NCBI GenBank assembly: GCA_963728565.1
Contig: CAVSLC010000005.1
Coordinates: 64,001 to 128,000 of the forward strand
Direction of reading: 5' to 3'
From: an uncultured delta proteobacterium
GTDB lineage: Bacteria > Desulfobacterota > Binatia > UBA9968
Length of the DNA: 64,000 bases
Made by a program: the position numbers and the translations under genes. The notes beneath the pieces are model-generated. The model saw only the letters and a program-made list of their open reading frames with translations. It searched no databases and was not told the origin of the DNA. Positions 14,708-48,668 of the stretch are shown here, piece after piece (the first letter of the stretch is position 1; each line of letters starts with the position of its first letter).

Positions 14708-14712
14708 ACGCG

Positions 14713-15528: not shown

Positions 15529-15553
15529 CGAAAGAAAATTCGGCAAGACAGGT

Positions 15554-16783: not shown

Positions 16784-16827
16784 AACAGCAACAGATCTTA
16801 TTAACGGTATTAGAAGGAGGAAGGCTT

Positions 16828-18093
16828 ATGTTTGAATTTGTCGAGGAGTTTAATCTGAACGCCCGTATCAAGGTCATCGGCATCGGTGGCGGCGGTGGTA
16901 ATGCGGTGAACACGATGATTGGCGGTAAGCTGAACGGCGTCGAGTTTTTGGTGGCAAACACCGACGCGCAATCGCTGGATGCCAGTCGCGCACCCGTACG
17001 AATCCAGCTGGGTGGGGCGGTGACCAAAGGACTTGGAGCCGGCGCCAATCCCGAAATCGGCCGGCGCGCGGCTTTGGAGGATCAGGAGACCATCAAAGAG
17101 TACTTAGCCGGTTCCGATATGATTTTTATCACCGCCGGCATGGGTGGTGGAACGGGAACCGGAGGGGCGCCGGTGATCGCCAGGGTCGCGCGAGAAGTCG
17201 GCGCGTTGACTGTGGGTGTGGTCACGAAGCCCTTCATATTCGAAGGTAAGAAGCGGATGCGGCAGGCAGAAGAGGGCATCGCAGAGCTCAAGAGCAGCGT
17301 CGACACCCTGATCGTTATCCCAAATCAAAGGTTGCTGAGCATCGCCGCCAAAACAACAACGATGTTGGAAGCGTTCCATAAGGCGGACGAAGTGCTGCTT
17401 CAAGCAGTCAGAGGGATCTCTGATCTGATCATCACGCCGGGCTTGATCAATCTTGATTTCGCCGATGTCAGGACGGTCATGGCGGAGATGGGCTTGGCGC
17501 TAATGGGCGCTTCAACCGCCACCGGGGAGAATCGCGCTATCGAAGCGGCGCAGCGAGCAATATCGAGTCCGCTGCTCGAAGACATTTCGATTCAAGGCGC
17601 GCGCGGCGTTCTGATCAACATCACCGGCGGGCCCGATCTCTGTCTGCATGAAGTGAACGAGGCGGCTTCAATGATTCAGGAAGAGGCTCACGATGAGGCG
17701 AATATCATTTTCGGCGCGGTTATAGACGAAACCATGCTTGATGAAATCCGCATCACGGTGATTGCAACGGGTTTTGGAGAAGGCAAGGACGACCGCAAAC
17801 CGGTTATCACAAGTTCCGGCCATGTCTCTTCCATGAACGCCTTGAACACCATGAATCACGTGGCCAACAGTGTGCCTAGTGCGGCAAACGTCAATCCGAT
17901 CAAGAATAAGAAAGTCGTGCATCTCGGGACAATCGTTGACGATCTCGACGCGCCCACATGGCAGCGCAAGAAGCCCGGCAGCGAGGAAGTAGAAACGGTG
18001 ACGCTGAGCAAGAGCACTTTGCAGTTGAGCACCGGGCAAGAGGAAGATGACAAGTATGACATTCCGACGTTTTTGAGACGGCAGATGGACTGA
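16828..18093 (+). CDS. ftsZ: cell division GTPase FtsZ
   Basis: GGGGGNAVN, tubulin motif GGGTGTG, NLDFADV, C-terminal DIPTFLR. Confidence 0.98.
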
Positions 18094-29800: not shown

Positions 29801-30670
29801 TCATTTGTCTCTTCCGTTCACTTCACCGCCACTTCTTTCGACTAATGCGAATCTTATCTTGCATTTCACGCCAGCGAGAATCCGGTGATTTGGATTCGGT
29901 AAATTAAGCCTAACGCGAAATGTGCCGCTTGCAGGATCGACGACTCGATCGACGATTGCGACCCGCACCTCGTGGGAAGAATGTGCAGGTGCCTCAAGGC
30001 TGATTTTGGCAGGCGTTCCCACCTCGACTTTGTTTCGCAATGAAACCGGCGCAAAAACTTCGACTCGTAGAGGATCGATCTGCGCAATTTTAACTATAGG
30101 CGAGTCGTTCTTGAACTGCCCGGAAACGAACTCCCCGGCCGACAGGAAACGCTCCACGACCACTCCGGTAATGGGGCTGCGGATGATATTTCGCGACAGC
30201 GCCACGTTTGCACGCTCCAGTTCGAGACTGGCAAGGCGCTGGTTGTCCATGGCACTGACGAGAGCCATTTCGGCGAGCTGCTTTTCCGTTTGCGCCTCTT
30301 GCAAGTCTGCGAGAGCGATAAGGTCGCGTTGGTACAATTTCTCTGCCCGGGCAAGCTTCAATGAGCTATATGTCAATCTCGCTTCTCCGGATTTGATCGC
30401 CGCTTCAACCGTCGCGCGGGCGCGCGCAACGGTTACGTTGGCGCTTTCCAGGCTCGAGTCTAGCTGAGCCACGATTTGGCCTTTTTTTACGAAAGCCCCT
30501 CGGTCCACATATACTTTCTCTAAGACGCCCTCGATAGGACTGCTGAGATGCACGACTTCCTGGGGAGCGACCAAGCAATCGAGGTTTCCGTCTTTTTCTG
30601 TCGTGTCGCCGCGGCCCAGCTGGCCGGACAACCAGAACATCGCCGCAAAGATCAACGTTCTCTTACGCAT
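29801..30670 (-). CDS. periplasmic adaptor (membrane fusion protein, RND/HlyD type)
   Basis: N-terminal hydrophobic signal; lipoyl-like halves SSPIEGVL..V.V..G..VKKGQ and IRSPITGVV; helical hairpin; VDPASGTFRVR. Confidence 0.88.
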   Translation of the reverse strand: MRKRTLIFAAMFWLSGQLGRGDTTEKDGNLDCLVAPQEVVHLSSPIEGVLEKVYVDRGAFVKKGQIVAQLDSSLESANVTVARARATVEAAIKSGEARLTYSSLKLARAEKLYQRDLIALADLQEAQTEKQLAEMALVSAMDNQRLASLELERANVALSRNIIRSPITGVVVERFLSAGEFVSGQFKNDSPIVKIAQIDPLRVEVFAPVSLRNKVEVGTPAKISLEAPAHSSHEVRVAIVDRVVDPASGTFRVRLNLPNPNHRILAGVKCKIRFALVERSGGEVNGRDK

Positions 30671-30682
30671 TTGTTCCTCCGG

Positions 30683-32675
30683 TTATTCAAGTTGTCCAGA
30701 AAACGCGAGCGCACCTTGCAACTGTTCATCGACTCTGAGGAGATCACGGCGTTTGCAGCCGTTGAACCGTTCCGCGGCACACTGTGCCCAGCGAAGCGCC
30801 AAGTTGCCGAGGCGCGGGTGGATGCGCTGACAGGGAGAAAGCGTTCCGGTCACCCACTGCCTGAATATCCCGCCATGCATACGGACGATTTCATCCTCGA
30901 GTGAAAAAATCATCTCATAGCTGCCGGGTTCGCCTTGGCGGCCACAGCGTCCCCAGAGCTGTCGGTCAACGCGACGCGAATCGTGCGGTTCAGTCCCGAT
31001 GACGTGCAGGCCTCCCAGCTCTGCCACGCCCGGAGCTAGGCGAATATCGGTGCCGCGGCCGGCCATGTTGGTTGCCACAGTGATCTGGCCCCATGCCCCC
31101 GCCTCGGCTATGACCGCGGCCTCTGCCTCGTCCTGGCGGGCGTTGAGCACACGATGCGGCACCCCGGCGGCGCTGAGTAGCTTGCTGCAAGATTCCGAGG
31201 CAGCTACCGACTTCGTGCCGATCAGGATAGGTCTCTGCCCGGTTCTAAGCTCGATGACCCGCGCAACGACGGCCTGCCACTTCGCTTCCGCTGTCGGGTA
31301 GACGCGATCACCCAAATGCACGCGGCGCGGCGCATGGTGTGTGGGTACGCGGACAACTGCCAGACCGTAGACCGACCAGAGTTCGCCGCGCACTTCACGG
31401 GCCGTGCCCGTCATGCCCGCGAGACGGCGGTAACGCCGAAAAAAGTGTTGGTAACTAATGCGTGACAACGGATCATTGGGCGCCGTGATCGCGCAGCCTT
31501 CTTTGATCTCGATCAGCTGATGCAGACTGTGCTCCCACGACCGATCTGCCATGATTCGCCCGGTATTCTCGTCGATGATTTGGATCTTGCCGTCCTTGAG
31601 CAAGTAGTGTGTGTCGCGGTGCATCAAGTGAAGCGCCGTCAAGCGCTTGACACACAAGCTCCTCGCGGCGCCAGGAGTTTACGAGAGAGGCATGGGACTG
31701 AAAAGATCCGACGGATCTTGCCCGACCGGACTCGGTTAAATGGATCAGCCGTTCACGCCCATCGATGGTGAAATCGATGCCGGTCTCGAGCTCGCCGGCG
31801 GCGCACCATGCGGCCTGATAATCGCCGCCGGCCTCCGCGCCATCGCTCGCCGGTTTGGAAATGATCAAAGGCGTGCGCGCCTCATCGATCATCACGCTGT
31901 CGGCCTCGTCCACTATGGCGAAATGCAGTCCTCGCAACAGCAACTGGGGTCGGTGCGACGGCGCAAGAGCGAGGCGCGCGATGTGTAATTGAAGCCGTCC
32001 TGACTGTTGCTTCAAAGCGATGCGATCGCGTAGATAGTCGAAAACCAGTTCGTTGTTTGTGCAATAGGTCACGTCACAAGCATAAGCTTGTCGGCGCGCC
32101 GCAGTGCTCATCCCGGAGGTGACGATGCCGACGCTGAGTCCGAGCGCGCGATACAGAGGGCGCATCAAGTTGGCATCGCGTCGCGCAAGATAATCGTTGA
32201 CAGTGACCACGTGGACGGGTAACCCCGCTAGAGCCGCGGTTGCACTGGGCAATGTCGCCGTCAATGTCTTGCCTTCTCCGGTATCCATCTCCGCGATCAT
32301 GCCGTTTAGCAGAATCCAGCCGCCCATGACCTGTACATCAAAGGGTCGCATGGCGAGCACGCGGGCAGCGGTTTCCCGGATGAGCGCGAATGCTTGCGTC
32401 ACTATTTCAAACTTCCAGGTGTGACCCCGCAGGTGATGGCGCAATTGCTCGGCGCAGGAGCGCAGCTCGCTGCTGTCAAGTGTCTGGAGTCGAAGGCCCT
32501 GAATCGACACGGCTTCAACAAAGCGTTGACAATGGAGTGCATGAATACGGAAATAGCGGACTGCCGGGCCAAGCAGGCGCGCGCAAGCCCGGTCGAGGCG
32601 ATTCTCGAAAGTGTGCCGGCGCTCCGCATATGCGCCACGCGGAAGCCCCATCGCTGGAAAACGCACGTCAGACAT
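30683..32675 (-). CDS. short SecA paralogue (~663 aa; one apparent extra base near 31641)
   Basis: EMDTGEGKTL, VHVVTVNDYLARRD, TNNELVFDYLRD, DEADSVMIDEARTPLIIS in ORF 31473-32687; GMTGT, VLNAR, ATNMAGRGTDI, SRRVDRQL.GR.GRQGEPG in ORF 30683-31657. Confidence 0.88.
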
Positions 32676-34812
32676 GGAACCTCGCAAGAAAAAGCTGACG
32701 CAACTGGCGATGCCAGCGGCTCGCTATAGGCTCCCAGCCATGGTCGAAGCGCACATGTACTCGTCCGCCGAACGACTGAATGCTGGCGCTTGCTGGAAGC
32801 GCCAGGTCGAACTGAAAAGTTTTTTCGACAGTCCTCAATCCATCCTTGTCGAGCGGATCGACCGCCATCCTGCCGCCGCCCTGATTGCCCAATGCGCTCG
32901 TCGGCAATTTTTCGCTGGCGGCAGGAACCTCGCGTTGTACCGTGGTCGTAAAGATCTCGTGAGGACGACCGATCAATCGCAGCTCGATGCGCTTGGTTTG
33001 ATGGCGCACCAGCTCGACATCGGCTTCGGGAACCACCACACGAGCGGTAAGCGCAGAGGTATCGAGTACGTATCCAAGCGTCGCGCCCTGATTGATAAAA
33101 CGCCCGGGCAGCTTTGCGGCATCAGGAATTTCAAAAATGCCGTCAGTACGGCTCCGAATCAAAAGATCGTTTACTCGTTCAGTGGCACGAGCGAGTCGTT
33201 GCTCGACGTGGACGATCTCGTCTCGCACAATCTGCGCTTGGCGGATGTCAATCAGGAGGAGCGCGCGATAGCGGGTATCCAGTTCGTCGAGCCGGGCTTG
33301 AAGCACCCTGACTCGGGCGGTGAGCTGCGGGTCGTAACACTCAATAAGAATATCGCCGCTTCGAACTGGCGAACCGGCGCGTGCGACAATGCGCTTGACG
33401 AACCCGTCGGTTGCCGCGCGCAGACGCGCCTGTTCGGGGAGCCAGATCACGCCTTCGGCGCCGGTGCGGAGGGGTAGCGGCAGCCAAAGGATCGCGGTCG
33501 ACAGAGCAACCGTCGCCAGCAAGCTTGTAGCTAGAGCTCGGCGGCGAACGATGCGAATGCCCGGGTCGGTGCATAAGTAGACTAAAGCTTTGACCAGCGG
33601 TCCGAGTATCCAGAGGACGATACCCGCCAGTGCCAACAAAACACCCACGAAGAAAAACTTGCCGGCAATAAAGAGCGTAATCGCCGCGAGGGCGAAAAGC
33701 CGATACAGAAACGCGGCGATGGGATACACCGTCAGCCAGACTCGTTCGGCGAGCTCTGCGGTTTGCGCTTGTGCGTCCTGACGGCCGAACACATAGCGCT
33801 CGCAGAGATACACCAGATAACGATGCGAGCGGGCACGCAGGTTCGGTATTTCCAGGTAGTCGGAAAGCATGTAGTACCCGTCATAGCGCAGCAGAGGGTT
33901 GGCATTGAAGAGGATCGTGGATATACCGGCAAGGAATAGGACGTTATATGCTGCCGTTCGGATCGCACCCGCTTCGATGTTCAACCAAAGAAACAGCGCG
34001 CATGATGCGATAAACAGTTCCACCATCATCCCCGCGGCGCCAACTACAATACGCTGCCACTTGGACGGAAAGGCAGAGGCGGACGAAGCATCAACATAGG
34101 GTATGGGTTGGAAGGCGATCAGCAGCACTCCCATCTCATGGACTTCCCCCCCATAGGCTCTTGTCGCCAAGCCGTGGCCGAACTCATGGAGAATCTTGAT
34201 CAGCGGAAATAGCAGCCACAAAACTGCGATATTCTGAGGCGTGAGAATCCGATCGGCGACCGTCAGGGTCAACTCCGACCAGTGGATTGCCGCTTGGCTT
34301 GCCGCCGTTCCGACCACAGCAAGCCATAGGATCAGAGCGCCGCGACATAGCAGTGGCCGTACCAGCGGCAGCAATGGCGTCATGATCCGTTCTGGATCGA
34401 AGAGCGGAAATTTCGTCGAAAGTGGATTCAGGAACCGGCTCTGTCGCTCCGTGCGGCACTCCCGTTCCTGACGCAGGAGCAGTTCCGCAAGATCCGCAGG
34501 GACGTCGCACTGCATCAGCTCTCCAGTGTGCAGCTGAGCCAAAAGTTGCACAACATCATTCTGTGTCGGCGCCTGGTCGCCGAGGTTTGCTTCCGCGGCT
34601 TGATACATTTCCTGCACTGTCAGGCTGCCGTTCATCAGGCCTAGGAAAGCGTACGCAGCCGAGGAAACGCGGTGTTGGCGGTATCTCGTATGATCCTGGA
34701 GCACGTACCAGCGTTTTCCTCGATACTGATGGCGCCGCACTTCCACGTGGCTGCGCAGGCGCGGCCGGAGAGGAGCAATGCGGTACCAATACGGATGGGA
34801 TAACTGCGGCAT
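32668..34812 (-). CDS. fusion of PqqD/RRE-like domain, M50 (site-2) intramembrane peptidase and HlyD-like adaptor domain
   Basis: HEFGHG (HExxH) and NANPLLRYDGYY (NxxPxxxxDG) in a multi-TM region; N-terminal wHTH pattern (..MNGSLTVQEM..TQNDVVQLLAQL); C-terminal ATDGFV..G..V..GD, hairpin, IRSRTDG. Confidence 0.85.
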   Translation of the reverse strand: MPQLSHPYWYRIAPLRPRLRSHVEVRRHQYRGKRWYVLQDHTRYRQHRVSSAAYAFLGLMNGSLTVQEMYQAAEANLGDQAPTQNDVVQLLAQLHTGELMQCDVPADLAELLLRQERECRTERQSRFLNPLSTKFPLFDPERIMTPLLPLVRPLLCRGALILWLAVVGTAASQAAIHWSELTLTVADRILTPQNIAVLWLLFPLIKILHEFGHGLATRAYGGEVHEMGVLLIAFQPIPYVDASSASAFPSKWQRIVVGAAGMMVELFIASCALFLWLNIEAGAIRTAAYNVLFLAGISTILFNANPLLRYDGYYMLSDYLEIPNLRARSHRYLVYLCERYVFGRQDAQAQTAELAERVWLTVYPIAAFLYRLFALAAITLFIAGKFFFVGVLLALAGIVLWILGPLVKALVYLCTDPGIRIVRRRALATSLLATVALSTAILWLPLPLRTGAEGVIWLPEQARLRAATDGFVKRIVARAGSPVRSGDILIECYDPQLTARVRVLQARLDELDTRYRALLLIDIRQAQIVRDEIVHVEQRLARATERVNDLLIRSRTDGIFEIPDAAKLPGRFINQGATLGYVLDTSALTARVVVPEADVELVRHQTKRIELRLIGRPHEIFTTTVQREVPAASEKLPTSALGNQGGGRMAVDPLDKDGLRTVEKTFQFDLALPASASIQSFGGRVHVRFDHGWEPIASRWHRQLRQLFLARFHV

Positions 34813-34824
34813 AGAAGAATCAGG

Positions 34825-36684
34825 CTACGGCGCCCAGGACCAAGCAAAGAGACGCAGCCAATCCAAAGCGCGATGGGTCCAGATCCAAATCAAACGACGA
34901 CGGCCGATCTCAATCTTAGCGACTCCTTCCATACCGGGCCGTAACTGTGGCAGAGCTTTTTCCAGTGCAGCCTCTACCCGGAAATAATTGCGTCCTTCGC
35001 TTGCCGCCGATACCGGTGTGATTTTCTGCACTCGGAAAGGCAAAGGCCTGGTTGGAAATGCAGCCAACGCGAGATCTCCGCGCTGTCCGACCACGACTTC
35101 CGCGGCGTCGCGTTCATCGACCTGCAGGACGACGCGGTAGGTGTTCAGCGGCGCGACTTCATACAAAATCTGGCCGCGCTCAGTCGGCGCGCCCATGGAT
35201 TGGCTCAGGTCGCCGCTGATCACGACGCCGTCGATTGGAGCGAGAAGGTGAGCGCGCGAGATTTGGTCTTCGATTAGGGCGAGCTCTGCCTCGGCTTGGG
35301 CGACCTGCGCCGCAGCGATCTTCACCTGGGACGCATTCTGCTGCGCCAGTGCGACGTTGTACTGCTTGCCGTACTGCTCTTTTTGGCTAAGCCATTTGAG
35401 CTGTTCGAGATTGAGATCGCGAGTATCCAGGGTCGCGAGAATTTCCCCGGCTTGCACCGTATCACCGGGGCGCGCTCTTGCGGTCGCAATGTAGCCATTG
35501 AAAGGCGCGACCGCGACCCGCTGGCTCTGTGCCTCGATCAGCATCTTGGTGGAAACGCGATATTGACCATTGGCGAAGATGAAAAACAGGATTACTGCGG
35601 CGGCCACCGCACTGCCGAACTTTGCTGCGGCATGGTCTGGTCCGACGACAGCGTTCCATCGCTCTCTTATTGCGTCCACGCCGCGGATTCTGAGCGGGCG
35701 TTCATCGCGCTTTTTCATTTCTAAAATCGGTCCGACGAGCGCTGCAATCGTTTCGCACATTTCGACGGTAGCGCCTTCCAAGGGACGATCGGCAAGCCGC
35801 TCCAAAGTAAGCACGCCGTAGATTTCGCCCTCGCGACCCAACGGCACAGAGCAGATTGCGCTGCTGCCGTGTCGTTGTGCGAGTTCCTGATGATGTTGAG
35901 CGATTGAACATAGTCTGTCTGAACTGGGCGGATACAGGATCGGTGTCTCCTGATCACAAGCTTCCTCCATAGCGGCTTCTATGGCGCGACTCAGGTTTGT
36001 GCGTTTGCCGAAGCGCGCATTGTGGGAAATCGCTTGCAGATTGATCCGGTCTTCGTCGCGAAAGCCCAGACTGACGCGCTCGCAAAACAGCCGTGTTGCC
36101 AGATCCGCTACCAACGCGGTGGCGGCCCGATGAAAGCTCTTCTCTTCGACGACAACCGCAAGTGCGTGGAGAACACCCTGTAAGCGCTCCTTCTGACGCT
36201 CGCTTTCGAGATATCTCTGGCGCTCCAGCATGACTTCCAGCCAGGCTGCGCCCCAGGAAAGCTGCTGGAGCGCGGTCTGGAGTGCGGCGGACGAACGCGG
36301 CGTGAGTCTAAGAACGACAACACCGAAGAGCTGCGGGCCGATCAAGATCGGATATGCGAGCTCATGGAATTCCTGAATGGCGCCGCCCGGACTACTGCGG
36401 ACTTTACGTTGAATGATCAGCGGCGACCGTTCTCGGATGGTCTGTTCGGCGGAAGCATTTAGTTCATCGGAGACTTTGTCGCCCGGCGGCCAACAGCCCT
36501 TGATCTTATAGGGGCCTTCATCGGGAGCGCCGATCAGCACAGATGCTGCGCTCACGCCGCCAATCAGCTGGCATTGATGCACAATCCAGGCTGCACAAAA
36601 ACCGTCCTCCGTGACCGCTCCGGGGACTCCCGTCCAGAGGGAATCTTGGCTGTTATTCGCTAACGCAGCATGGGCAGAACTCAT
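34825..36684 (-). CDS. GAF-domain-containing HlyD-family periplasmic adaptor
   Basis: Two GAF-like segments (ELAYPILIGPQLFGVVVL; ICSVPLGREGEIYGVLTLER), one TM, MFP motifs APFNGYI..PGDTV..GE.L and APIDGVVISGD; start at ATG 36684 assumed. Confidence 0.83.
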   Translation of the reverse strand: MSSAHAALANNSQDSLWTGVPGAVTEDGFCAAWIVHQCQLIGGVSAASVLIGAPDEGPYKIKGCWPPGDKVSDELNASAEQTIRERSPLIIQRKVRSSPGGAIQEFHELAYPILIGPQLFGVVVLRLTPRSSAALQTALQQLSWGAAWLEVMLERQRYLESERQKERLQGVLHALAVVVEEKSFHRAATALVADLATRLFCERVSLGFRDEDRINLQAISHNARFGKRTNLSRAIEAAMEEACDQETPILYPPSSDRLCSIAQHHQELAQRHGSSAICSVPLGREGEIYGVLTLERLADRPLEGATVEMCETIAALVGPILEMKKRDERPLRIRGVDAIRERWNAVVGPDHAAAKFGSAVAAAVILFFIFANGQYRVSTKMLIEAQSQRVAVAPFNGYIATARARPGDTVQAGEILATLDTRDLNLEQLKWLSQKEQYGKQYNVALAQQNASQVKIAAAQVAQAEAELALIEDQISRAHLLAPIDGVVISGDLSQSMGAPTERGQILYEVAPLNTYRVVLQVDERDAAEVVVGQRGDLALAAFPTRPLPFRVQKITPVSAASEGRNYFRVEAALEKALPQLRPGMEGVAKIEIGRRRLIWIWTHRALDWLRLFAWSWAP

Positions 36685-36703
36685 GATCGTCCGGCCACAG
36701 ACG

Positions 36704-36719
36704 GCAAGAACTATGCCGA
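36704..36719 (-). promoter_or_regulatory. possible sigma54 (-24/-12) promoter of the export operon
   Basis: Minus strand TCGGCATAGTTCTTGC = GG-N10-GC; very close to the assumed ATG, so uncertain. Confidence 0.35.
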
Positions 36720-36903
36720 CATTCCAGCAAGCGCGCTCTCTTGGTTGAGTCAGGGTTGTCGTCGCAGAGCGCGCCTCACAAGGAATCCAAGGGTGAAGAA
36801 ATCCCGAAAGACGAATCATGGAGCCCGGCAAGGTGAGTGAGTTTATGGCGAGACATGACCTCAAATCTGCCAGTTGCTGTGCGGAAACGTACGAAAAATG
36901 AGT

Positions 36904-37971
36904 TCAGGGAGACTCGGCGGCCGGTGCAAGACCAATCTCGATCAGAAAAACAGGACCATGATCGTGATTGCTCACCGTCACCGTGCCGTCGTGAGCCTCG
37001 ATGATCTGCCTGGAGATCGCCAGGCTCAAACCGGAGCCTTGATGGTGATGCGCGATATCCTGCACGGATAGCAGGTTGAAAATTTCTTCCTGCTGCTCCA
37101 TCGGAATCTTCTCTCCGTCGTTGGCAACTTCGATCCGCAGTCGGTCTCCAAGTCTATGAGCGCGTACCTCGACGGCACTGCCTTCGCGAGCGAATTTCAC
37201 GGCATTGTCCAACAGCGCGCTGATCGCAATCGTGAACAGCTTTAGATCTGCATCAATGCGCAAAGTTTCGTCGCCGGAAAACCGCAACGTGCAATGTTGT
37301 TCATTTTGCTGAAATGTTTGCCGATACTCTGAAAAGAATAAGCTGAGCGGGGCATTGGCCTTTTCGATCCGAACCTCTCCTAACTTTAGATCGCTTAACA
37401 AGAGTGTCTTTTCGCACGATTGCAAGAGTTTTTCGCCGCATCTCTGAATCTCATCGACAAATGTTTTTTCCTCGCCGACGAGGTGTTCGCTTTCACGCAG
37501 CAACCGAATGTAGCCAAAGATCGCGGTGAGCGGAGTGCGCGTTTCGTGACTGAGCAGATTGATGAGATTGGTCTTGATTTTGTTGATTTCCTCGGCATTT
37601 TTCAGCCGAAGAAAGACCTTTACCTTGGCGAGGAGTTCGCTCGCTTCGAACGGTTTCATGATGTAGTCATCCGCCCCAATTTCGTATCCGAAAAGTCTAT
37701 CTTCAAGCAACATTTTCGAGGACACGAGAATGATCTTCAGATTCGAAAACACGTTATTGCTCCGAATCCTGCGACACACTTCATATCCATCGATATCGGG
37801 CATCATGATATCCAGCAAGATTAGATCGACTTTCGGGCAAGTATTTAAATAAGCGAGCGCTTCTTCGCCCGAGGAGACGAGATGGATGGTATGTTCGTTC
37901 TCCAGGATCAGCCTGTAAATTTCCAAAATAATTGGGTCGTCGTCGACCGCCAGGATGGTTGCCGTCATCAT
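36904..37971 (-). CDS. cytoplasmic receiver + histidine kinase hybrid (REC-HisKA-HATPase)
   Basis: ILAVDDD..DLILLDIMMPDIDG..KPF; SHETRTPL; LLDNAVKF; GSGLSLAIS. Confidence 0.9.
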   Translation of the reverse strand: MMTATILAVDDDPIILEIYRLILENEHTIHLVSSGEEALAYLNTCPKVDLILLDIMMPDIDGYEVCRRIRSNNVFSNLKIILVSSKMLLEDRLFGYEIGADDYIMKPFEASELLAKVKVFLRLKNAEEINKIKTNLINLLSHETRTPLTAIFGYIRLLRESEHLVGEEKTFVDEIQRCGEKLLQSCEKTLLLSDLKLGEVRIEKANAPLSLFFSEYRQTFQQNEQHCTLRFSGDETLRIDADLKLFTIAISALLDNAVKFAREGSAVEVRAHRLGDRLRIEVANDGEKIPMEQQEEIFNLLSVQDIAHHHQGSGLSLAISRQIIEAHDGTVTVSNHDHGPVFLIEIGLAPAAESP

Positions 37972-38113: not shown

Positions 38114-41100
38114 ATGAAAGCGCCTTTAAGCGCCATCAGGCATCGTGATCTGGACGGCTGTTCAGTTAAACTACTCCAGAGAGCGGCCAAATTCGTCCAT
38201 CGGCTGGCTTTAAAACGGATCAGCAAGCACCGAGCAGCCGGTGCCATCCGCAGTCCAAGTGAGTTCATCATTGAACCTTTGGAAGAACGGCTGTTGATGT
38301 CGGCGGACCCCATTTCCGGCGGCATCGTGACTGTTGAGCCGGTTTCATTGCCAAGAAGCGATCCGGCGGCGATCAGCGCGCCGCTTTTGGACGAGTTGCA
38401 TACTACGATTTCGGTCAGCCAGGGAGAAGCGTCATCAATCGGCAGCGCATCACCGGCGAGGCAAGCGCGCAGCGAAGTCGTGTTCCTCGATTCGAGGATT
38501 GAATCTCGCGAGGATTTCGTTCGGGATCTCCTCGCCAACTCGAGTGCAATTCGTCAGATTGATGTTTTCGTGCTTGACGCGGAGCGCGACGGCATCGAGC
38601 AGGTAAGCGAAGCTCTGGCAGGTTACACGAACTTGGATGCTGTGCATTTTATTTCCCATGGCTCTGGTGGTGTGGTGCAATTGGGTGACACACGGCTCGA
38701 CCACGATTCGACACAGATTCGGGCGCAGGCCCTTGCTGCCTGGAGCGCGGCGTTGAGCATCGACGCTGACCTGCTCTTTTACGGCTGCGATGTAGCGAGC
38801 TCTCCATCAGGAATTGCGCTAGTTGAAAGATTGAGTCTCCTTACCGGTAGCGATATCGCCGCGAGCATTAATCGGACTGGTTTCGGCGAGTCCGGGGCCG
38901 ACTGGATACTTGAGCATCGGGTGGGGGAAATAGAAGCCGCAATCGCTGTGAGTCCATCGCTGCAAGCGGCTTGGGCAGGGATTCTGGCGACGCCGACCGC
39001 CTCCAACCTGAACACCGCGGAGAAGTACACCCTGAATACGCCGCTGAACCTCGCCGACATCGTGGTCAATGATGCGGATGGCGATGCCGTGACGGTGACC
39101 CTGACCGTGTCGAACACTGCGGCGGGGCGCCTCTCGACGGGCGCTTCGGGCGCCGTCACCTCCACCTACAATACGATCACCGGAGTCTGGTCGGCAAGCG
39201 GCGCGGTTGACGACGTCAATGTCCTGCTGGCCAATGTGAGGTATACCCCGAGCCTTCTTTTCCTCGGCAACTTTACGATCGCCACTCGTGTCGATGACGG
39301 GGGTTCTCCGCCGCTCAGCGGCGTTAAGAATATGTCCGCGGCACTTATCAACCTGCCGCCAACCGCAACCAATCTGAGCGCACCCGAAACGTTTACCGAG
39401 GATTCGGCGATCAATTTAACAAATATCGTCATCAGCGATCCTGACAGCCCCAATGTAACGGCGCGGTTGACCTTGTCGAATCCTGCGGCGGGAAGTCTCA
39501 ATACAGGCAGCTCGGGAGCGGTGACTTCAACTTTCAACCCGGTCACGGGCATGTGGTTGGCGAGTGGCGCGATCGCCGACGTCAACGCGCTGCTGGCGGG
39601 GCTCATCTTTACGCCGGCCGCCGATTACGATGATAACTTCACGATCAGTACCCGGGTGGACGACGGCGTCGCTGCCGCGATCACCGGAACAAAGAGTATG
39701 ACGGCAGTTCCCATCAACGACGCACCGACGGCCTCGAACCTGAATGCCGCGGAAACCTACACAGAAAATCAGTCGTTGAACCTGGCGGACATTGTGATCG
39801 TCGATGTGGATGGTCCGAGCGTCACTGCGATCCTGACTCTTTCCGATACCTCGGCCGGCAGTCTCAATACCGCAACTTCCGGCTCGGTGACCTCGACCTA
39901 TACTGCCGGAACCGGCGTGTGGTCGGCAAGCGGCGCTCTCAACGACGTCAATGCGCTTCTTGCGGGGCTGACCTTCACACCGACCGCTCTTTACAGCAGC
40001 AGTTTCACTATCGCCACAAGCGTCGATGATGGCGTGGCGCCGGCGATCACCGGCACGAAGAGCATAACGGCAAATATCATTAATGTGGGGCCGCTGGCGT
40101 CCAACTTGAGCGAGCCGGAAACGTACACAGAGGATATTGCACTCGACTTGATCGACATCGTCGCGAGCGATCTCGACAGTCCCAACGTGACCGTCACGCT
40201 TACCCTCTCCGACCCTGCGGCGGGCACCCTCGCTACAGCGACATCGGGACAAGTGACGTCGACATTCGAATCGCTGACCGGCACATGGTCGGCAAGCGGC
40301 GCGATTGCCGATGTGAACACGCTGCTGGCAGGCCTGACCTTTACTCCGGCAGCGGACTACAACAGCAACTTTACTATCGCCACCAGCGTCGATGACGGCG
40401 TGGCGCCGCCCGTCACTGGGCTTAAAATCCTGACCGCGGTCGCCGTCAACGATGCACCGGTGGCGAGCAATCTCAGTGAACCGCAGACTTACACGGAAGA
40501 TACGGCGCTCGACCTGACCGATATTGTGGTGAGCGACGTGGACAGCGCGAATGTGACGGTGACTTTGACGCTGTCGGATCCGGCCGCCGGCAGTCTCAAT
40601 ACCGCCACGGCGGGAGCCGTGACCTCGACCTACAACGCAGGGACGGGGGCGTGGAGCGCGAGTGGCGCGGTGGCGGATGTGAACACGCTGCTGGCAGGGC
40701 TGACGTTTAGTCCGGCGCTGAACTACAACAGCGACTTCACGATTGCCACCAGCGTCGATGACGGCGTGGCGCCGCCCGTCACTGGAGTCAAAACCATGAT
40801 CGCCGCGGCCGTCAACGATGCGCCTGTTAACAACCTACCACCGCCGCAAGCGACACCGCAGGATACTTCGTTGAGCTTCGGTGCGGGCGGCGGAAATGCC
40901 ATCTCCGTCACCGACGTCGATGCGGGAACGGATCAAATCGAGGTGACGCTGACGGCCGGCAACGGAACGCTTACGCTGCATTGGCCGTCCGGGACCGCCG
41001 CGCCCGCGGGTAGCGAATTCCGGATCAACACGATCACGACCGACCGTCAGGCAATGCTCAATGGCGAGTTCTATGGTGCCACCACCTCGAGTTCGGTGGG

Positions 41101-44100
41101 CCCCGAGCAGTTGCCACGGATCCGAACGGCAATTTTGTTGTGGTCTGGTCGAGCAAAAATCAAGACGGTGACGGCTGGGGGATTTACGCGCAAAGATACA
41201 ACGCCGCCGGCGCGGCACAGGGTGGCGAATTCCGCATCAATACCACTGTCGTGAAAGATCAGCTGCATGCGTCGGTGGCCATGGACGATGCCGGCAACTT
41301 CGTCGTTGTTTGGGCGAGCAAGGACCAAGACGGCGACAATTGGGGAGTCTACGCCCAACGCTACGATTCGAGCGGTGTTGCACAGGGCGGCGAGTTTCAA
41401 GTCAACACAAACATCACCAAGGAGCAACTCGGGCCCAGCATCGCCATGTCCGCCGACGGCGACTTTGTGATCGTATGGTCGAGCAATGATCAGGACGGAG
41501 ACGACTGGGGCGTTTACGCCAAGCGCTATTATGCGGCCGGAATGGTGCAAGGCGGTGAGTTCCGCGTCAATACCACCACCACCAAAGATCAGACCGCCTC
41601 CGCGGTGGCCATGGATGCCGAAGGCAATTTCTCGTCACTTGGTCCAGCAAAGACCAGGACGGAGATAACTGGGGAGTTTACGCTAAGCGCTACAATGCCG
41701 CCGGACTGGCGCAGGGCGGTGAGTTCCGCGTCAACACGTATACCGGCAAAGAGCAAGAGTTTCCCTCGGTCGCAATGGACGCCGCCGGCAATTTCGTCGT
41801 CACCTGGTCGAGCAAAGATCAGGACGGCAACAACTGGGGCATTTATGCCAAGCGCTATGACGCCGGCGGCGTCGCCCAGGGAGCCGAGTTCCTGGTCAAT
41901 CAGACGACAGCAATGAGCAGCTGCACTCGTCGGTCTCGATGGACGCCGACGGCGATTTTGTCATCACCTGGTCGAGCAAGGATCAGGACGGCAATGGTTG
42001 GGGAGTCTACGCACGCCAATACACGGCAGACGGCACGGCCAAATCAGGTGAGGTGCTGATCAATACGACGACTGCGGGGGACCAGCATCTGTCTTCTGTC
42101 GCGATGGATGCCAGCGGCGACTTCGTGGTTGTCTGGACAGGCGCCGGGCCGGGCGACTCGCTGGGCGTGTTCGGACAGCGCTTCACTATCTCCAGCCCTT
42201 TGACGTTCGCCGCCGGCGATGGAACCCGCGACGCAACGATGACTTTTCGTGGAACGGCGGCGGAGGTGAATGCGGCGCTCGATGGCTTGGTCTTTACGCC
42301 GACTGCCGGTTTCAACGGCCTTGCTTCCATTACGGTCAGCACAAGCGACTTGGGGAACAGCGGCACCGGCGGTCCTCAGTCAAGCAGCGCCACCGTCAAC
42401 ATCGCTGTCGGAAATGGAAATCTCCCTCCTACCCTGAACCTCACAGGCGGTGCGGTCACTTATACCGAGAACGACCCGGCAACCGTGATCGATCCAGCTG
42501 CGACCGTGGGTGATCCCGACTCGGCAGACTTCGACGGTGGGCAGCTGAGTGTATTCCTGAGCGCGGGCGGCACGGACAACGACCGCCTCGGTATACGAAA
42601 CGAGGGCACGGGCGTGGGACAGATCGGCGTCTCAGGCAATATCGTCACCTATAACTTCGGCGCAGGCGCGGTGGCAATCGGCACGTTCGACGGCGGCATG
42701 GACGGTGTCACGCCTCTGGTGGTGACGTTCACCGCGAGTGCGACACCGGCAGCTGTCCAGGCGCTTGCGCGCAACATCACGTACCAGAACCTGTCCGACG
42801 ATCCGTCTACTTTGAATCGCATCGTGGAATTCACCCTGACGGACGGCGACGGCGGCACGAGCAGCGCGGCGAGTCGAAACATCAATGTAACCGCGATCAA
42901 TGACGCGCCTATGGCAACGAACCTCAGTGCCGGGGAGACTTACACAGAGGACACGGCGCTCGATCTGACCGATATCGTGGTGAGCGACGTGGACAGCGCC
43001 AATGTGACGGTGACTTTGACGCTGTCGGACTCGGCCGCCGGCAGTCTCAATACCGCCACCTCGGGAGCCGTGACCTCGACCTACAATGCCGCAACCGGCC
43101 TCTGGACAGCGAGCGGCGCGGTGGCGGACGTGAACACGCTGCTGGCAGGGCTGACGTTTAGTCCGGCGCGGACTACAACAGCGACTTCACCATTGCCACC
43201 AGCGTCGATGACGGCGTGGCGCCGGCCGTCACCGGAGTCAAAGCCATGACTGCCGTCGCCGTCAACGACGCGCCTATGGCAACGAACCTCAGTGCCGGGG
43301 AGACTTACACAGAGGACACGGCGCTCGAATCTGACCGACATTGTGGTGAGCGACGTGGACAGCGCCAATGTGACGGTGACTTTGACGCTGTCGGACTCGT
43401 CCGCCGGGAGTCTCAATACCGCCACCTCGGGAGCCGTGACCTCGACCTATAATGCCGCAACCGGCCTCTGGACAGCGAGCGGCGCGGTGGCAGATGTGAA
43501 CACGCTGCTGGCAGGGCTGACGTTTAGTCCGGCAGCGGATTACAACAGCGACTTCACGATTGCCACCAGCGTCGATGACGGCGTGGCGCCGGCCGTCACC
43601 GGAGTTAAAACCATGACCGCCATCGCCGTCAACGATGCACCGGTTCTGGTCAATAATACGCTGACCATCAACGAGGGCGGTAGCGTGACGCTTTCCGGCA
43701 CTGAGATGTCGGCGACGGATGTGGACAATGCGAGTGGGACTCTGACGTTTTCGGTATCCAACGTCACCGGCGGTCAATTTGAGCTTGTTGCCAGCCCGGG
43801 AGCAGCAATTACCACCTTCACGCAGGCCCAAGTAACGGCTGGCGCAGTTCGTTTCATCCACGACGGCGGAGAGGCTGCGCCGAGCTACAATCTGACCGTG
43901 TCTGACGGCTCTCTCACCGATGGTCCCGCCGCTGCCAGCATCACTTTCGCCAATATCAACGACGCGCCTATGGCAACGAACCTCAGTGCCGGGGAGACTT
44001 ACACAGAGGACACGGCGCTCGATCTGACCGATATCGTGGTGAGCGACGTGGACAGCGCCAATGTGACGGTGACTTTGACGCTGTCGGATCCAGCCGCCGG

Positions 44101-46113
44101 CAGTCTCAATACCGCCACCTCGGGAGCCGTGACCTCGACCTACAATGCCGCAACCGGCCTCTGGACAGCGAGCGGCGCGGTGGCGGATGTGAACACGCTG
44201 CTGGCAGGGCTGACGTTTACGTCCGGCAGCGGACTACAACAGCGACTTCACGATTGCCACCAGCGTCGATGACGGCGTGGCGCCGGCCGTCACCGGAGTC
44301 AAAGCCATGACTGCCGTCGCCGTCAACGACGCACCTATGGCAACGAACCTCAGTGCCGGGGAGACTTACACAGAGGATACAGCGCTGGATCTGACCGACA
44401 TTGTGGTGAGCGATGTGGACAGCGCCAATGTGACGGTGACTTTGACGCTGTCGGACTCGTCCGCCGGGCAGTCTCAATACCGCCACCTCGGGGGCCGTGA
44501 CCTCGACCTACAATGCCGCAACCGGCCTCTGGACAGCGAGCGGCGCGGTGGCAGATGTGAACACGCTGCTGGCAGGGCTGACGTTTAGTCCGGCAGCGGA
44601 TTACAACAGCGACTTCACCATTGCCACCAGCGTCGATGACGGCGTGGCGCCGGCCGTCACCGGAGTTAAAACCATGACCGCCATCGCCGTCAACGATGCA
44701 CCGGTTCTGGTCAATAATACGCTGACCATCAACGAGGGCGGTAGCGTGACGCTTTCCGGCACTGAGATGTCGGCGACGGATGTGGACAATGCGAGTGGGA
44801 CTCTGACGTTTTCGGTATCCAACGTCACCGGCGGTCAATTTGAGCTTGTTGCCAGCCCGGGAGCAGCAATTACCACCTTCACGCAGGCCCAAGTAACGGC
44901 TGGCGCAGTTCGTTTCATCCACGACGGCGGAGAGGCTGCGCCGAGCTACAATCTGACCGTGTCTGACGGCTCTCTCACCGATGGTCCCGCCGCTGCCAGC
45001 ATCACTTTCGCCAATATCAACGACGCACCTATTCTAATCAACAATCACTTGGTCATCCGGCAAGGCTCGTCGGCCGTGCTCAGCAGCGCAAATCTTTCCG
45101 CTTCGGATGTAGATAACCCTCCTGCCGGTTTGACCTTCGACGTGTCCAATATAAACGGCGGCCGTTTCGAACGAACTTCAGGCCCGGGTGTTGCCATTAC
45201 GAGCTTTAGCCAGGCAGAGGTAACCGGCGGCGGCATTCGCTTCGTACATACCGGCGGTAACACAGCGCCGAGCTACGATGTGACTGTGTCTGATGGCAGT
45301 CTTTCCGTCGGCCCGCTTCCAGCGGCAGTGGCTTTTGAGCCTCTGGATGACAGCGGCGAGGATCTCACGCCTACACAGACCACGCCGCTGGCACCGATAG
45401 CTCCGACGCTGCCCATACCGGAGATAACTCCACCGCTCGTGTTGCCTCCGAATTCCACCGGTGGCCCTGTCGGAAAGACTGACGTTGACACCAATCCTTC
45501 GAACGCGTCGCTCGGGGTGGATACGTTGGCTGAGGTGCAGCCCTATCAGAGTCCCGATAGCACGCAAGAAGCGAGTACGACAAGCAGGCCGCTGCCGGCC
45601 CGGACCACCGAAAAGGGGGCTGAGATTCGGGACGGCCTCTCTCTGAAAACAGATTCGTCTGTGACAGCGACCGATGTGACTGTCGATGAAACTGAGACAG
45701 ACACGGTTCAGCGCGGCGAACTGGGTTCAATCGTCGATGGGCAAAGTTTTGTGCAAGAGTTGAATAGGCTGCGAGAGGAACTTGCCGAGGAAATCGATTC
45801 GGAGAGACTTGTTGTCGGCTCCTCGGTTACCGTCGCGACGGGCTTCTCGATCGGTTATGTGCTCTGGCTGCTGCGCGGCGAAGTGTTGCTGACCAGCCTG
45901 TTGGCGTCCTTGCCCGCCTGGCGCCTCATCGATCCGCTGCCGGTGCTCTCGTTTGTAAGCAAGCGTTCCGAGGACGATGACGACGATGACTCCATTGAAG
46001 CCGCGGTCCAGAAAGGTGCAGCTATTGCTCCGGCCGAAGCCGACTCTGCGCGCGTGCCACAGCAAGGAACCCGATCGATCCGCTGGCGCATGGTGGCGGA
46101 GCCGGCTGAATAG
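38114..46113 (+). CDS. giant repeat surface protein/adhesin (~2,660 aa; about 7 apparent single-base frameshifts)
   Basis: Continuous repeat architecture across ORFs 38114-41254, 41140-41916, 41775-42059, 41939-43249, 43292-44272, 44277-44588, 44497-46113; LEPRxLL-like motif ([13 protein letters not shown]), DUF4347-like domain, NDAP-linked Ig/cadherin-like repeats, hydrophobic C-terminal motif. Start codon uncertain. Confidence 0.85.
38990..40813 (+). repeat. five tandem ~366 bp (122 aa) Ig/cadherin-like coding repeats
   Basis: Unit NLS..ETYTED..L.L.DIVV.D.D...[19 protein letters not shown]....TG.WSASGA..DVN.LLAGLTF.P; NDAP-type junctions at ~39716, 40082, 40448, 40814. Four more copies start at ~42900, 43262, 43958, 44323. 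Confidence 0.9.
41014..42190 (+). repeat. seven tandem ~165 bp (55 aa) coding repeats, predicted beta-propeller blades
   Basis: Unit EF.(I/V)NT....(D/E)Q...SVAMD..G(N/D)[12 protein letters not shown](I/V)YA.RY...G..QGG starting at ~41014, 41227, 41392, 41557, 41721, 41886, 42050. Confidence 0.85.
42902..45027 (+). repeat. near-identical ~1,060 bp tandem duplication inside adhesin gene
   Basis: 42902 onward matches 43961 onward, and 43921 matches 44982, with only scattered differences. Confidence 0.9.
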
Positions 46114-46121: not shown

Positions 46122-48668
46122 GTGCAGTTCGTGAAACGTCTGAGCGCAAAATGCCACATTGCTTTGGGGCTGACGTTTTTGCTGGTCAGCCTAGTGCTCG
46201 CTTGTTTCTATCTGGGGCTCATACCCGATCGCCTCGGCGCGATCCGCGCCGGTCGAGCGGCTCTCGCTGAGTCGATTGCTGCCAATAGCTCGGTGTTCAT
46301 CAGCCAATCGGATCTACGGCGGTTAGAGATGACGCTTCGATTTGTCGTCGCACGCAATCCCGAGATTCTCTCGGCTGCGATGCGGCGCGCCGACGGCGAA
46401 ATCGTTGTGAATATCGGCGACCACGGTCGCCACTGGCGTAATTTGCACGATGAACATTCGACTGACTCGCAGCTGCGAGTGCCGATAATGGCCAGTAAGC
46501 AGAAGTGGGGAAGCCTGGAACTTCGTTTGCAGCCTCTGACCCCGACCGCTTGGTACGGCTTCGTTTTCGACCCGAGATTCAAGTTGCCCCTATTTCTCGC
46601 GCTTTGCGCTTTTCCCCTATTTTACTTTTACCTGGGCAAAATGCTCCGCGAACTCAACCCGTCGCAGGCAATTCCAGCCCGGGTGCGCTCCGCGCTCGAT
46701 ACGATGGTGGAAGGTCTCCTGGTGATCGACGCCAACGGCCGTATCGTATTGGCGAACCAGGCTTTCGCTTCCATAGTCGGCAAGATACCCGATGAACTCA
46801 TCGGCCTGAGCGCGTCCGAGTTCTCATGGTCAAACAGCGACGGCACGGCGCTCGAGCAGGATTCAGCACCGTGGCTCAAAGCGCTTCGTGATCAGTGCCT
46901 GCAAAAGAATTTGATGGTCGCGCTCAGCGACTATCAGCAGAAGCGCCGCGCGTTCATCGTGAACTGCTCGCCGATCTTTGTCGGCAAAGGGCGGACCGGC
47001 GGTGTCTTAATCAGCTTGGACGATGTTACGGAACTGGAAGAGAAAGAGATCGAACTCCGCCAGTCCAAGGAAGCCGCCGAGATTGCCAACCGCGCGAAAA
47101 GCGAATTCCTCGCGAATATGAGCCATGAGATCAGGACGCCGATGAATGCCATTCTCGGCTTTACCGAGGTGCTCAGGCGCGGCTACGGCCAAAACGAGCA
47201 AACCTGGCAGAAGCACCTGCACACGATTCACTCCAGCGGCAAACATTTGCTCGAGTTGATCAATGACATCCTGGATCTGTCCAAAATTGAAGCAGGCGGC
47301 TTGCGGGTCGAGAAGATCCCGTGCAAACCGCACGAGGTCGTCCGAGACGTGGTTCAGGTCTTGTCGGTCAAAGCGCGGGAAAAATCCGTTTCGTTGGATA
47401 TCGAGTTCGCCAGTGCCGTACCGGAAACAATTCTGAGCGATCCTTCGCGCCTGCGTCAGATTCTCACGAATCTGGCCGGCAACTCCATCAAGTTTACCGA
47501 AGAGGGTGGGGTCAAGATTGTGCTTGGTCTGTCGCGGAGCGATAGTGACGCGCAACTGACTCTGGCGGTGATCGACACTGGAATCGGCATAGCCGAAGAC
47601 AAGCAGCAAGCGATCTTCGATCCTTTCGTCCAGGCGGACACGTCGGTTACCCGGAAATTCGGCGGCACCGGACTCGGACTCGCGATCAGTCGCCGGTTCG
47701 CGCAGGCTCTCGGCGGTGACATAACGCTGCGCAGCGAACCCGGCAAGGGGAGCGTCTTTACTGTCAGGATCGACACAGGACCGCTTGATGGCGTTCGAAT
47801 GCTCCAGCCCGCCGAAGCGTTGGCGGCGAGCGAACAGATTTCTACCGAGACTCGCCCTCGCTGGGATTTTCCTCCCGCCCGAGTGCTCGTGGTCGACGAT
47901 GGCGATGAAAACCGGGAGCTGGTCACGGTGGTTCTGCAGGAGATCGGGCTCAAAGTCGAGGGCGCTGAAAACGGCCAAGTGGCGGTTGCAAAGGCCCTCC
48001 AGGAGGAATTTGCGGTCATCTTTATGGACGTGCAGATGCCGGTGATGGATGGTTTGACGGCCACCCGTCAACTGCGCCTACGTGGGCTCAAGACCCCAAT
48101 TATCGCGTTGACCGCGCACGCGATGAAGGGCTTCGAAGAAGAGATTCTGGCCGTGGGATTTTCCGGCTATCTCACGAAGCCGATCGATATAGATGCCTTG
48201 ATCCACAAACTGGCCGAGTTGCTGCGAGCGCGCAGCATCGAAGCCACGCCTCCCGAGACTCAAGTAGCCGCAGGTCCAATTTCTGCGGCAATCGGCTCGG
48301 CCCGGCAAGCGGACGAGCCGCCGCTGGTCTCGCGTCTGGCAGCAAATAATCCGCGTTTCGTTCCAATCATCGAAAAATTTGCGCGACGTCTTACCGATCA
48401 GCTCGATGCCATGGCGAAGGCTTGGGAGGAAAAAAACTATGACGAGCTGGCGAGCCTCGGGCACTGGCTCAAAGGAGCCGGCGGCACCGTCGGATTCGAT
48501 GCTTTCACCGAGCCTGCCTACGTTCTTGAGCAATCGGCGAAGGGGCGCAAAGAGGAAGAGACCGAGGCGGCACTCGCGGAACTTCGCCGACTCGCCGGTC
48601 GCGTCAGGGTTGGCAGCGAAGCCCTGTCGCCCTCGATTGCTGTCGTTGCCGGCTCGGCCAACGGCTAA
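46122..48668 (+). CDS. membrane hybrid sensor kinase (2 TM, PAS, HisKA, HATPase, REC, Hpt)
   Basis: [19 protein letters not shown] (PAS); [14 protein letters not shown]; NSIKFT, DTGIGI, GGTGLGL; [10 protein letters not shown]; Hpt [13 protein letters not shown]. Confidence 0.93.

Follow-up and report, generated by a model that had tools for sequence, protein, structure and literature searches.

An RRE-M50-HlyD fusion protein as candidate leader reader of a secretion cassette linked to LEPR-XLL-leader proteins

Introduction

How bacterial proteins of 5,000–19,000 residues are exported without a Sec signal is poorly understood. The question arises at a locus in a 64,000-nucleotide stretch of DNA from an uncultured delta proteobacterium of the lineage Desulfobacterota, Binatia, UBA9968 (assembly GCA_963728565.1, contig CAVSLC010000005.1, positions 64,001 to 128,000; the whole stretch is hereafter called the window). 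Here the gene P0001 encodes a protein of three parts, namely a domain resembling the recognition elements (RREs) of pathways for ribosomally made, post-translationally modified peptides (RiPPs), an M50 or site-2 protease, and a HlyD-type adaptor. A neighbouring gene encodes a putative adhesin that carries a leader of the LEPR-XLL type. What would such a fusion protein read, and what would it cut? We propose, at slightly better than even confidence, that P0001 is the subunit that reads and cuts the signal in an envelope-spanning exporter for LEPR-XLL-leader proteins, with the adhesin at 38114 as its cargo in the window.

P0001 is the second of four tightly packed genes on the minus strand, arranged in the order GAF-HlyD, RRE-M50-HlyD, SecA-like and short HlyD (29801–36864), and these four genes are referred to as the cassette. 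[quoted passage not shown] It is composed of GAF-HlyD, Peptidase_M50-HlyD, SecA_DEAD without wing and scaffold, and HlyD/Biotin_lipoyl genes, sometimes with an adjacent outer-membrane efflux protein (OEP) gene and without an ATP-binding cassette (ABC) transporter. The window contains all four genes in order, which makes its locus one of this type. Among culturable carriers, the 2015 report names Methylobacterium extorquens AM1 (META1p2399-2402). In its main text, that report specifies no cargo and uses neither the term PqqD nor the term DUF3467.

Results

P0001 joins an RRE-type domain to an intramembrane protease and an adaptor

The reading frame placed here by an initial annotation of the sequence is a real open reading frame (ORF), located on the minus strand and encoding 714 residues (Table 1). 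Its homologues number more than 7,000 and nearly all are 714–716 residues long, and the RRE and M50 parts alone match 3,120 cluster representatives at E ≤ 1e-30. The same annotation described intact M50 motifs followed by a HlyD-like domain, and both descriptions hold. The HEFGH sequence at residues 209–213 (nt 34174–34188) forms an HExxH motif within a membrane helix, and NANPLLRYDG at residues 303–312 (nt 33877–33906) forms the NxxPxxxxDG-type motif containing the third zinc ligand. The residues H209, E210, H213, N303, N305, P306 and D311 are invariant across 60 homologues, and the Peptidase_M50 score of the protein is 28.7 bits against a Pfam cut-off of 27.2. About seven hydrophobic segments, read from hydropathy only, make up a polytopic core between residues 154 and 444. 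A hydrophobic helix at residues 426–444 precedes the adaptor part, which matches HlyD_3 (37.1 bits) and HlyD_D23 (32.3 bits) over residues 461–632, both above the Pfam cut-offs. P0001 thus belongs to the HlyD/membrane-fusion proteins, with its HlyD domains following a membrane anchor. Since the number of helices is odd, hydropathy predicts that the N-terminus with the RRE is cytoplasmic and that the adaptor is periplasmic.

The N-terminus of P0001 is supported as an RRE or PqqD-type fold by model and profile comparisons, and this assignment is based on the combined evidence, as no single score carries it. The AlphaFold2 model of residues 1–135, built with a 51-sequence alignment (pLDDT 83.7), contains strands at 23–30, 33–40 and 45–49, helices at 51–58, 66–80 and 84–96, and a linker helix. 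The three β-strands are followed by three helices, which is the arrangement of a winged helix-turn-helix domain and agrees with the PqqD-like pattern recognized in the initial annotation. The model was compared with 48,161 representative PDB chains by VIA-align. It matches TbiB1 (Z 8.1, 82/84 residues), lasso B1 (Z 8.0) and PqqD (Z 7.8, 89/94), so that the similarity to solved RREs extends over the whole domain. Further matches are the RRE regions of ThcOx, TigE, PbtF, MibB, LynD, CteB, MccB, NisB and TglI, and RRE-bearing RiPP proteins occupy 15 of the top 25 rows. The best two rows are the C-terminal winged-helix domains of other enzymes, Rv2067c (Z 9.8) and NovN (Z 8.6).

Sequence profiles were also compared. 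With the whole protein as query, Pfam reports a PqqD match at residues 37–96 (E 0.0087), and 45 of the 51 orthologous N-domains match PqqD at E ≤ 0.01 (best 4.3e-9). Among the 120 homologues of P0001 that were listed, 27 have a precomputed PF05402 match, and one is named 'PqqD family peptide modification chaperone' by its source. When the profile of the 51 N-domains was searched against PDB sequences, PqqD took ranks 1–3 (3g2b, E 8.3e-4; 5sxy, 0.032; 5vrd, 0.46). The initial annotation had assigned an RRE-like domain to the first ~85 residues. The fold stands, in view of the AlphaFold2 model, the Z scores and the PqqD profiles, but the extent is revised to residues ~17–100.

The neighbouring adhesin carries a LEPR-XLL-type leader

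The adhesin next to the cassette matches the NCBIfam model LEPR-8K (NF012209) at residues 51–68 with 24.1 bits, above the 17-bit cut-off, in line with the LEPRxLL-type leader described in the initial annotation. This is the only above-cut-off LEPR-8K match in the genome of the window (an assembly of 80.6% completeness), which contains exactly one P0001 homologue and one above-cut-off leader protein, adjoining each other. The window leader aligns with 14 other leaders, and the pattern E..E.R.L.SAD is invariant among them. As read from the sequences, the leaders possess a basic N-terminal stretch and no hydrophobic Sec-type core.

In the assembly, the adhesin is broken into at least five ORFs, with frame changes near 41140–41254, 41916–41939, 44272–44277 and 44497–44588; a stop codon in frame also interrupts it between 43249 and 43292. 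Of the indels, only that of an additional G behind position 41088 finds support, in one contig of low depth, and contigs do not cover the other breaks. The interruptions may be due to assembly error or to decay.

The cassette accompanies LEPR-leader proteins across genomes

The initial annotation linked P0001 to the adhesin leader. This link is strengthened by our comparison, in which the cassette is tied to LEPR-XLL-leader proteins by both neighbourhood and genome co-occurrence. We collected 80 related loci, labelled as Planctomycetota, Gemmatimonadales, Methylomirabilia, Burkholderiales, Desulfobacterota-type lineages, Omnitrophota and others; L068 among them comes from the culturable Desulfobulbus rhabdoformis DSM 8777. 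A hidden Markov model built from 15 leaders matches ORFs in 11 of the 80 loci as well as in the window, and ORFs of the LEPR/DUF4347 type are found in 11 clusters' worth of loci, the window included. In 21 loci, giant RTX-repeat ORFs located directly upstream run past the edge of the locus. The adjacency of giant ORF and cassette was worked out from matched coordinates in five genomes. In three of them, LEPR-8K matches above the cut-off at the start of a giant ORF that ends at the cassette (7,038 residues in G001, 6,668 in G003 and 15,050 in G004). The giant protein beside the cassette of G005 (13,324 residues) gives a weak LEPR-8K match of 12.6 bits, and the matches in G002 are located on contigs other than that of the cassette. 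Five further cassette genomes have no giant gene within 10 kb; four of these encode LEPR proteins at other places in the genome (as many as nine in G406), and G409 encodes none.

Co-occurrence was counted in two samples, the first composed of 401 genomes of the window's phylum (homologue at E ≤ 1e-20, leader above the cut-off) and the second of 301 genomes around G406. In the first sample, 27 genomes contain a homologue, 13 a leader and 10 both, and the corresponding numbers in the second sample are 88, 50 and 49. Fisher tests for co-occurrence give 8e-11 and 9e-31, respectively, values that overstate the association because related genomes are not independent. Moreover, leader and homologue are located on one contig, at most ~10 kb apart, in eight of the ten co-occurring genomes of the first sample, and in the second sample, at least 25 of the 50 genomes with a leader have a leader gene within 10 kb of a listed homologue. 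The leader-bearing open frames include those of 19,211 residues (G206:C2:23891), 19,427 residues (G492:C115:112865) and 16,090 residues (G420). G432 contains three separate cassette–cargo pairs, on contigs C29, C1 and C25, with cargo frames of 11,649, 15,434 and 12,894 residues. LEPR-type motifs also start short open frames of 116–700 residues (for example G406:C41:32116-32175), partly in assemblies with frameshift-broken genes.

Two leader classes match two classes of the candidate reader

All 12 leaders located beside P0001-type genes read …LEPRxLLSAD with FE upstream, and three further leaders in the same alignment, whose neighbourhood was not checked, also read SAD. Many leader-adjacent homologues are only 25–30% identical to P0001, and eleven of these were taken as a second class. 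All eleven are M50-HlyD proteins of 697–753 residues, and every one of the leaders beside these paralogues (11/11) reads (A)LEPRxφφD[GA][AT]…, for example ALEPRxLFDGAA. The leader dialect therefore follows the branch of the receptor candidate. Only one of the 11 second-class N-domains matches PqqD, weakly; the profile of these domains is homologous to the RRE of P0001 (hhalign probability 96.6%, E 5e-10, 121 columns).

The two classes differ in the SecA-like gene. Four of five second-class genomes contain no SecA_DEAD gene except the canonical secA, which encodes 911–966 residues and is located far from the locus, and in the fifth genome, G416, SecA-like genes are found only beside its two P0001-type cassettes. 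The second-class locus L125 (G533:C1:3158000-3172000) has the gene order OEP, HlyD, HlyD, RRE-M50-HlyD, with no ATPase gene nearby, and ATPase genes are likewise absent near the second-class loci L124 and L127. The only component common to every leader-linked locus examined is the RRE-M50-HlyD protein. Because this protein is shared by all these loci and the SecA-like ATPase is not, the comparison of loci favours the former, rather than the latter, as the probable leader reader. More broadly, the RRE-M50-HlyD protein may be the receptor and signal peptidase of an unnamed, widespread LEPR-leader secretion pathway, with leader dialects matching receptor lineages and the SecA-like motor being a one-lineage add-on; we offer this wider reading tentatively and rate it somewhat below even.

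Two second-class loci have further neighbours. In L124, a transporter of the ShlB/FhaC two-partner-secretion type adjoins, together with proteins of 720 and 763 residues without a Pfam match. The L125 locus is followed immediately downstream by TspB-like and Zot-like ORFs (L125:8456-11404), of kinds that filamentous prophages typically carry.

Composition of the cassette and its surroundings

Within the 80 loci, GAF-HlyD is located upstream of the M50 gene in 77 and a SecA-like gene downstream of it in 72. Seven of the eight loci without a SecA-like match end within 320 nt of the M50 gene, and in the remaining one, L009, a leader-bearing ORF directly follows the M50 gene. A short HlyD homologue is found nearby in 61 of the 80 loci, one of these being a probable cross-match. 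The REC-HisKA-HATPase gene is not conserved (matches in 2/80 loci). In addition, 33 of the 80 loci encode a DUF3467 protein of ~100 residues, its gene separating the giant cargo gene from GAF-HlyD (for example L011:7737-8051, L021:7683-8030 and L080:7755-8051). It may act as a cargo chaperone. DUF3467 was not found in the 80.6%-complete genome of the window, and its profile matched nothing convincing among PDB sequences (best E 0.06).

The cassette has TolC-type OEP genes as neighbours in three of 11 loci examined. In the flanks of these 11 related loci, the sole ABC match is a soluble ABC-F-type protein in L080, and a type I ABC exporter was not found. The window ORFs scanned contain neither an ABC_membrane nor a C39 domain, so the locus does not qualify as a type I exporter or a peptidase-containing ABC transporter (PCAT). 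Two Hsp70-like genes follow the cassette in L021 (15672–20346) and in L022, one of them with a DUF3731 'DnaK-related' domain, and a DnaJ-domain gene occupies the same position in L012.

In the window, the start of the SecA-like gene overlaps the stop of P0001. The protein matches SecA models only to position ~547 of 789 and therefore lacks the wing/scaffold part. One extra base near 31641–31644 splits the gene into two overlapping ORFs. This base is absent from all four covering soil-metagenome contig sets, which come from two studies (position 31644 in X1, X2 and X3; 31641 in X5), and in a frame test without it the frame is open for 667 residues. The break thus reflects faulty assembly or a lesion of this strain and does not belong to the gene as such. 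The two halves are the only SecA_DEAD matches in the genome; a housekeeping secA was not found in this 80.6%-complete assembly and is presumably located in the unassembled part. The short HlyD adaptor scores 124 bits with TIGR01730, above the NCBIfam cut-off.

Table 1 Features of the P0001 locus in the window.
Feature	Position	Strand	Evidence
P0001, RRE-M50-HlyD fusion gene	32668..34812	-	ORF; Pfam and NCBIfam domains; homologues
RRE/PqqD-like winged-helix domain, P0001 residues ~17-100, predicted cytoplasmic	34513..34764	-	AlphaFold2, structure, profile matches
M50/site-2-protease membrane domain, P0001 residues ~150-445	33478..34365	-	Motifs, hydropathy, Pfam, NCBIfam
HlyD-type periplasmic adaptor domain (predicted), P0001 residues ~446-714	32671..33477	-	Pfam HlyD_3, HlyD_D23
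GAF-HlyD adaptor, 679 aa, immediately upstream of P0001, same operon	34825..36864	-	Pfam GAF and HlyD
Short SecA-like ATPase (NBD1-PPXD-NBD2, without wing/scaffold), 667 aa after frame repair	30683..32687	-	Pfam and NCBIfam SecA
Short HlyD/RND-type adaptor, 289 aa, last cassette gene	29801..30670	-	Pfam HlyD_D23, HlyD_3, Biotin_lipoyl_2
REC-HisKA-HATPase protein, 355 aa, head of minus-strand gene row	36904..37971	-	Pfam
Cadherin-like adhesin, putative cargo, divergent, ~2,660 aa if continuous	38114..46113	+	ORFs; Pfam DUF4347, Cadherin_3/4/5
LEPR-XLL-type leader motif, 18 aa, adhesin residues 49-66	38258..38311	+	DNA; NF012209
DUF4347 domain, adhesin residues 122-291	38477..38986	+	Pfam PF14252 E 6.4e-47

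Signalling genes frame the locus. Besides the REC-HisKA-HATPase gene, a PAS hybrid histidine kinase with Hpt (46122–48668) and a REC-GGDEF-EAL protein (48689–50542) are encoded on the far side of the adhesin. These flanking genes, together with the GAF domain on one adaptor, hint at second-messenger control of the adhesin system. At the other end of the window, a complete-looking dcw (division and cell-wall) cluster extends from mraZ to ftsZ (638–18093). Its mraW methyltransferase gene is apparently split into overlapping ORFs (1509–2192 and 1792–2439), which may be another single-base assembly error.

Discussion

In the mechanism that we propose, the cytoplasmic RRE of P0001 (residues ~17–100) would bind the leader, composed of a basic stretch followed by φFExLEPRxLLSAD, in the way that RiPP enzymes bind leader peptides, and the M50 intramembrane zinc protease next to it would remove the leader. 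The HlyD domain of P0001, GAF-HlyD and the short HlyD protein would together bridge the periplasm as a conduit leading to a TolC-type duct in the outer membrane, the gene of which lies elsewhere. In the P0001 branch, the 667-residue wingless SecA-like ATPase would feed the unfolded chain and drive transport. Sequence comparison is our basis for inferring that the RRE contacts the leader, that the leader is cleaved, which way and by what path the chain travels, and what each adaptor does. The leader, with an acidic/hydrophobic motif behind its basic stretch, is similar to the short motifs that dock onto RREs as an extra β-strand, of which the cyanobactin and nisin leaders are examples.

Several observations weigh against this proposal. 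The support for binding, cleavage and export is comparative throughout. Many cargo giants contain RTX repeats, a trait of ordinary type I substrates. An inner-membrane channel is not evident, and no TolC gene is located within the window; six OEP proteins are encoded elsewhere in its 80.6%-complete genome. The window leader departs from the consensus at the proline position (LEERLLM versus LEPRxLL). The SecA-like gene and the adhesin are interrupted in the assembly, and if these interruptions are real, the system is defective in this strain. Across genomes, homologues occur without a leader in 17 of 27 cases in the first sample and 39 of 88 in the second, either because they serve other cargo types or because giant genes were missed in fragmented assemblies; leaders occur without a homologue in 3/13 and 1/50 genomes, respectively. 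Concerning the fold, residues 1–135 of P0001 score 20.0 bits with PqqD (E 8.7e-4), below the Pfam gathering score of 23.4, and a Z score of ~8 falls within the range that VIA-align flags as a possible common arrangement. A Foldseek search of the PDB with the N-domain model found no match at E ≤ 1e-3; the best match is GdmN (1.7e-3), TbiB1 scores 0.026, and solved RREs match weakly (E 0.026–0.36).

The cassette might serve LEPR-leader proteins and still leave the reading of the leader to another part, either the preprotein-binding domain of the SecA-like protein or the N-terminal part of GAF-HlyD, while the RRE binds a different cargo segment, a partner subunit or a regulatory peptide. Signal sequences are known ligands of SecA proteins, and SecA_PP_bind is kept in the SecA-like protein; moreover, the leader co-occurs and co-varies with the locus as a whole, which does not single out the RRE. 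However, the homologous RRE of the daptide system is reported as the element of leader dependence (bioRxiv 10.1101/2023.03.08.531785). The RRE domain is also kept across a deep split of the family, and the four second-class genomes without a SecA-like gene nevertheless have RRE-M50-HlyD beside the leader protein, which makes another reader unlikely in our view. A further alternative dispenses with export: the cassette would anchor and release the adhesin, or control its quality, in analogy to the regulated release of the LapA adhesin, with M50 clipping an N-terminal tag under signal control and the adhesin being exported otherwise. The GAF sensor domain fused to one adaptor and the two-component and cyclic di-GMP genes flanking the window locus would fit such a role, as would the RTX repeats and the missing channel mentioned above. 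Yet no type I ABC exporter is present in the flanks of the 11 loci or among the larger ORFs of the window, and three adaptors with an ATPase, adjoined by TolC in three of 11 loci, look like a conduit. In addition, the leader is located at the cytoplasm-facing extreme N-terminus, without a hydrophobic anchor. We consider such a role without export distinctly improbable.

It could also be asked whether P0001 matures and exports a small RiPP-like peptide, as MpaP or YydH do, with the adhesin as a neighbour by coincidence. Its best NCBIfam matches are indeed daptide_HExxH (E 6.9e-50) and YydH/LiaK (E 9e-9), and some frames starting with a LEPR motif are as short as those described above (116–700 residues). 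But the daptide match of 170 bits is far below the 300-bit cut-off, no RiPP tailoring enzyme domain is found among the window ORFs, and the loci show no conserved family of small precursor-like ORFs, the only conserved small ORF being DUF3467 (33 loci). Given the absence of tailoring genes and of a conserved precursor, and the strong link to large LEPR-leader proteins, a small-peptide substrate was set aside as very unlikely.

Compared with known systems, P0001 as the candidate leader reader is similar to MpaP, the daptide protease, described as an intramembrane leader peptidase that depends on an RRE (Ren et al., bioRxiv 10.1101/2023.03.08.531785). Both have an N-terminal RRE fused to M50, and P0001 is homologous to the MpaP model NF041824 over residues 17–396 (E 6.9e-50). 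The proposed logic is also the same, as the RRE would bind an acidic/hydrophobic leader motif, reported as ELExMEAP in daptides (bioRxiv 10.1101/2023.03.08.531785), and the protease would remove the leader. P0001 differs from MpaP in its score (170.2 bits versus the 300-bit cut-off of NF041824), which does not make it an equivalog, in its additional C-terminal HlyD adaptor, and in a presumed substrate of thousands of residues instead of a short peptide. Furthermore, P0001 is located in a cassette with SecA-like and adaptor genes, whereas daptides are accompanied by an ABC transporter. The other components of the daptide context (short precursors with C-terminal Thr, oxidative decarboxylase, aminotransferase and methyltransferase) were not found among the window ORFs scanned. 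YydH/LiaK, the epipeptide maturation metalloprotease (NF058609), is likewise an M50-type HExxH membrane protease acting on a ribosomal peptide. Its match to P0001 is weak (E 9e-9, residues 180–324, 35 bits versus a 225-bit cut-off), and the model contains neither RRE nor adaptor.

The proposed system also shares features with type I export through PCAT, HlyD and TolC, in which a single inner-membrane component, working alongside a HlyD adaptor and a TolC duct, couples recognition and cleavage of the leader to export. The cargo of the proposed system likewise includes RTX-repeat giants. In contrast to PCAT systems, the proposed system has no ABC transporter or C39 peptidase, and would instead use an M50 protease, recognition by an RRE and, where present, a SecA-like motor. 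Classical RTX substrates use a C-terminal signal, whereas the signal of LEPR-leader cargo is N-terminal. Wingless SecA domains are also reported inside giant proteins, in a differing arrangement (West-Roberts et al., bioRxiv 10.1101/2023.11.21.568195).

The initial annotation implied that the architecture of P0001 was new. This view is not sustained, as the fusion of an RRE with a site-2 protease is published for daptides, and the cassette was published in 2015 (PMC4452313). In the literature searched, most subscription journals excepted, the cassette is not linked to LEPR-leader proteins and its N-domain is not called an RRE. The RRE reading within the cassette, the link to LEPR-leader cargo, and the pairing of two leader classes with two receptor classes, for which a SecA-like motor is optional, did not appear in that literature. 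The LEPR-XLL tag itself is already catalogued, with no function given there.

If our proposal is true, the LEPR-XLL tag would be the address label for a dedicated machine, and the cassette, unexplained since 2015, would gain a role. The RRE and the leader would constitute a testable receptor–signal pair, and cargo could be predicted by rule across thousands of genomes. RRE domains, until now characteristic of natural-product pathways that make small peptides, would also act in protein secretion. On the wider and more tentative reading, the pathway would be dedicated to LEPR-leader proteins, some of the largest bacterial proteins included, with RiPP-style leader recognition recruited for protein targeting.

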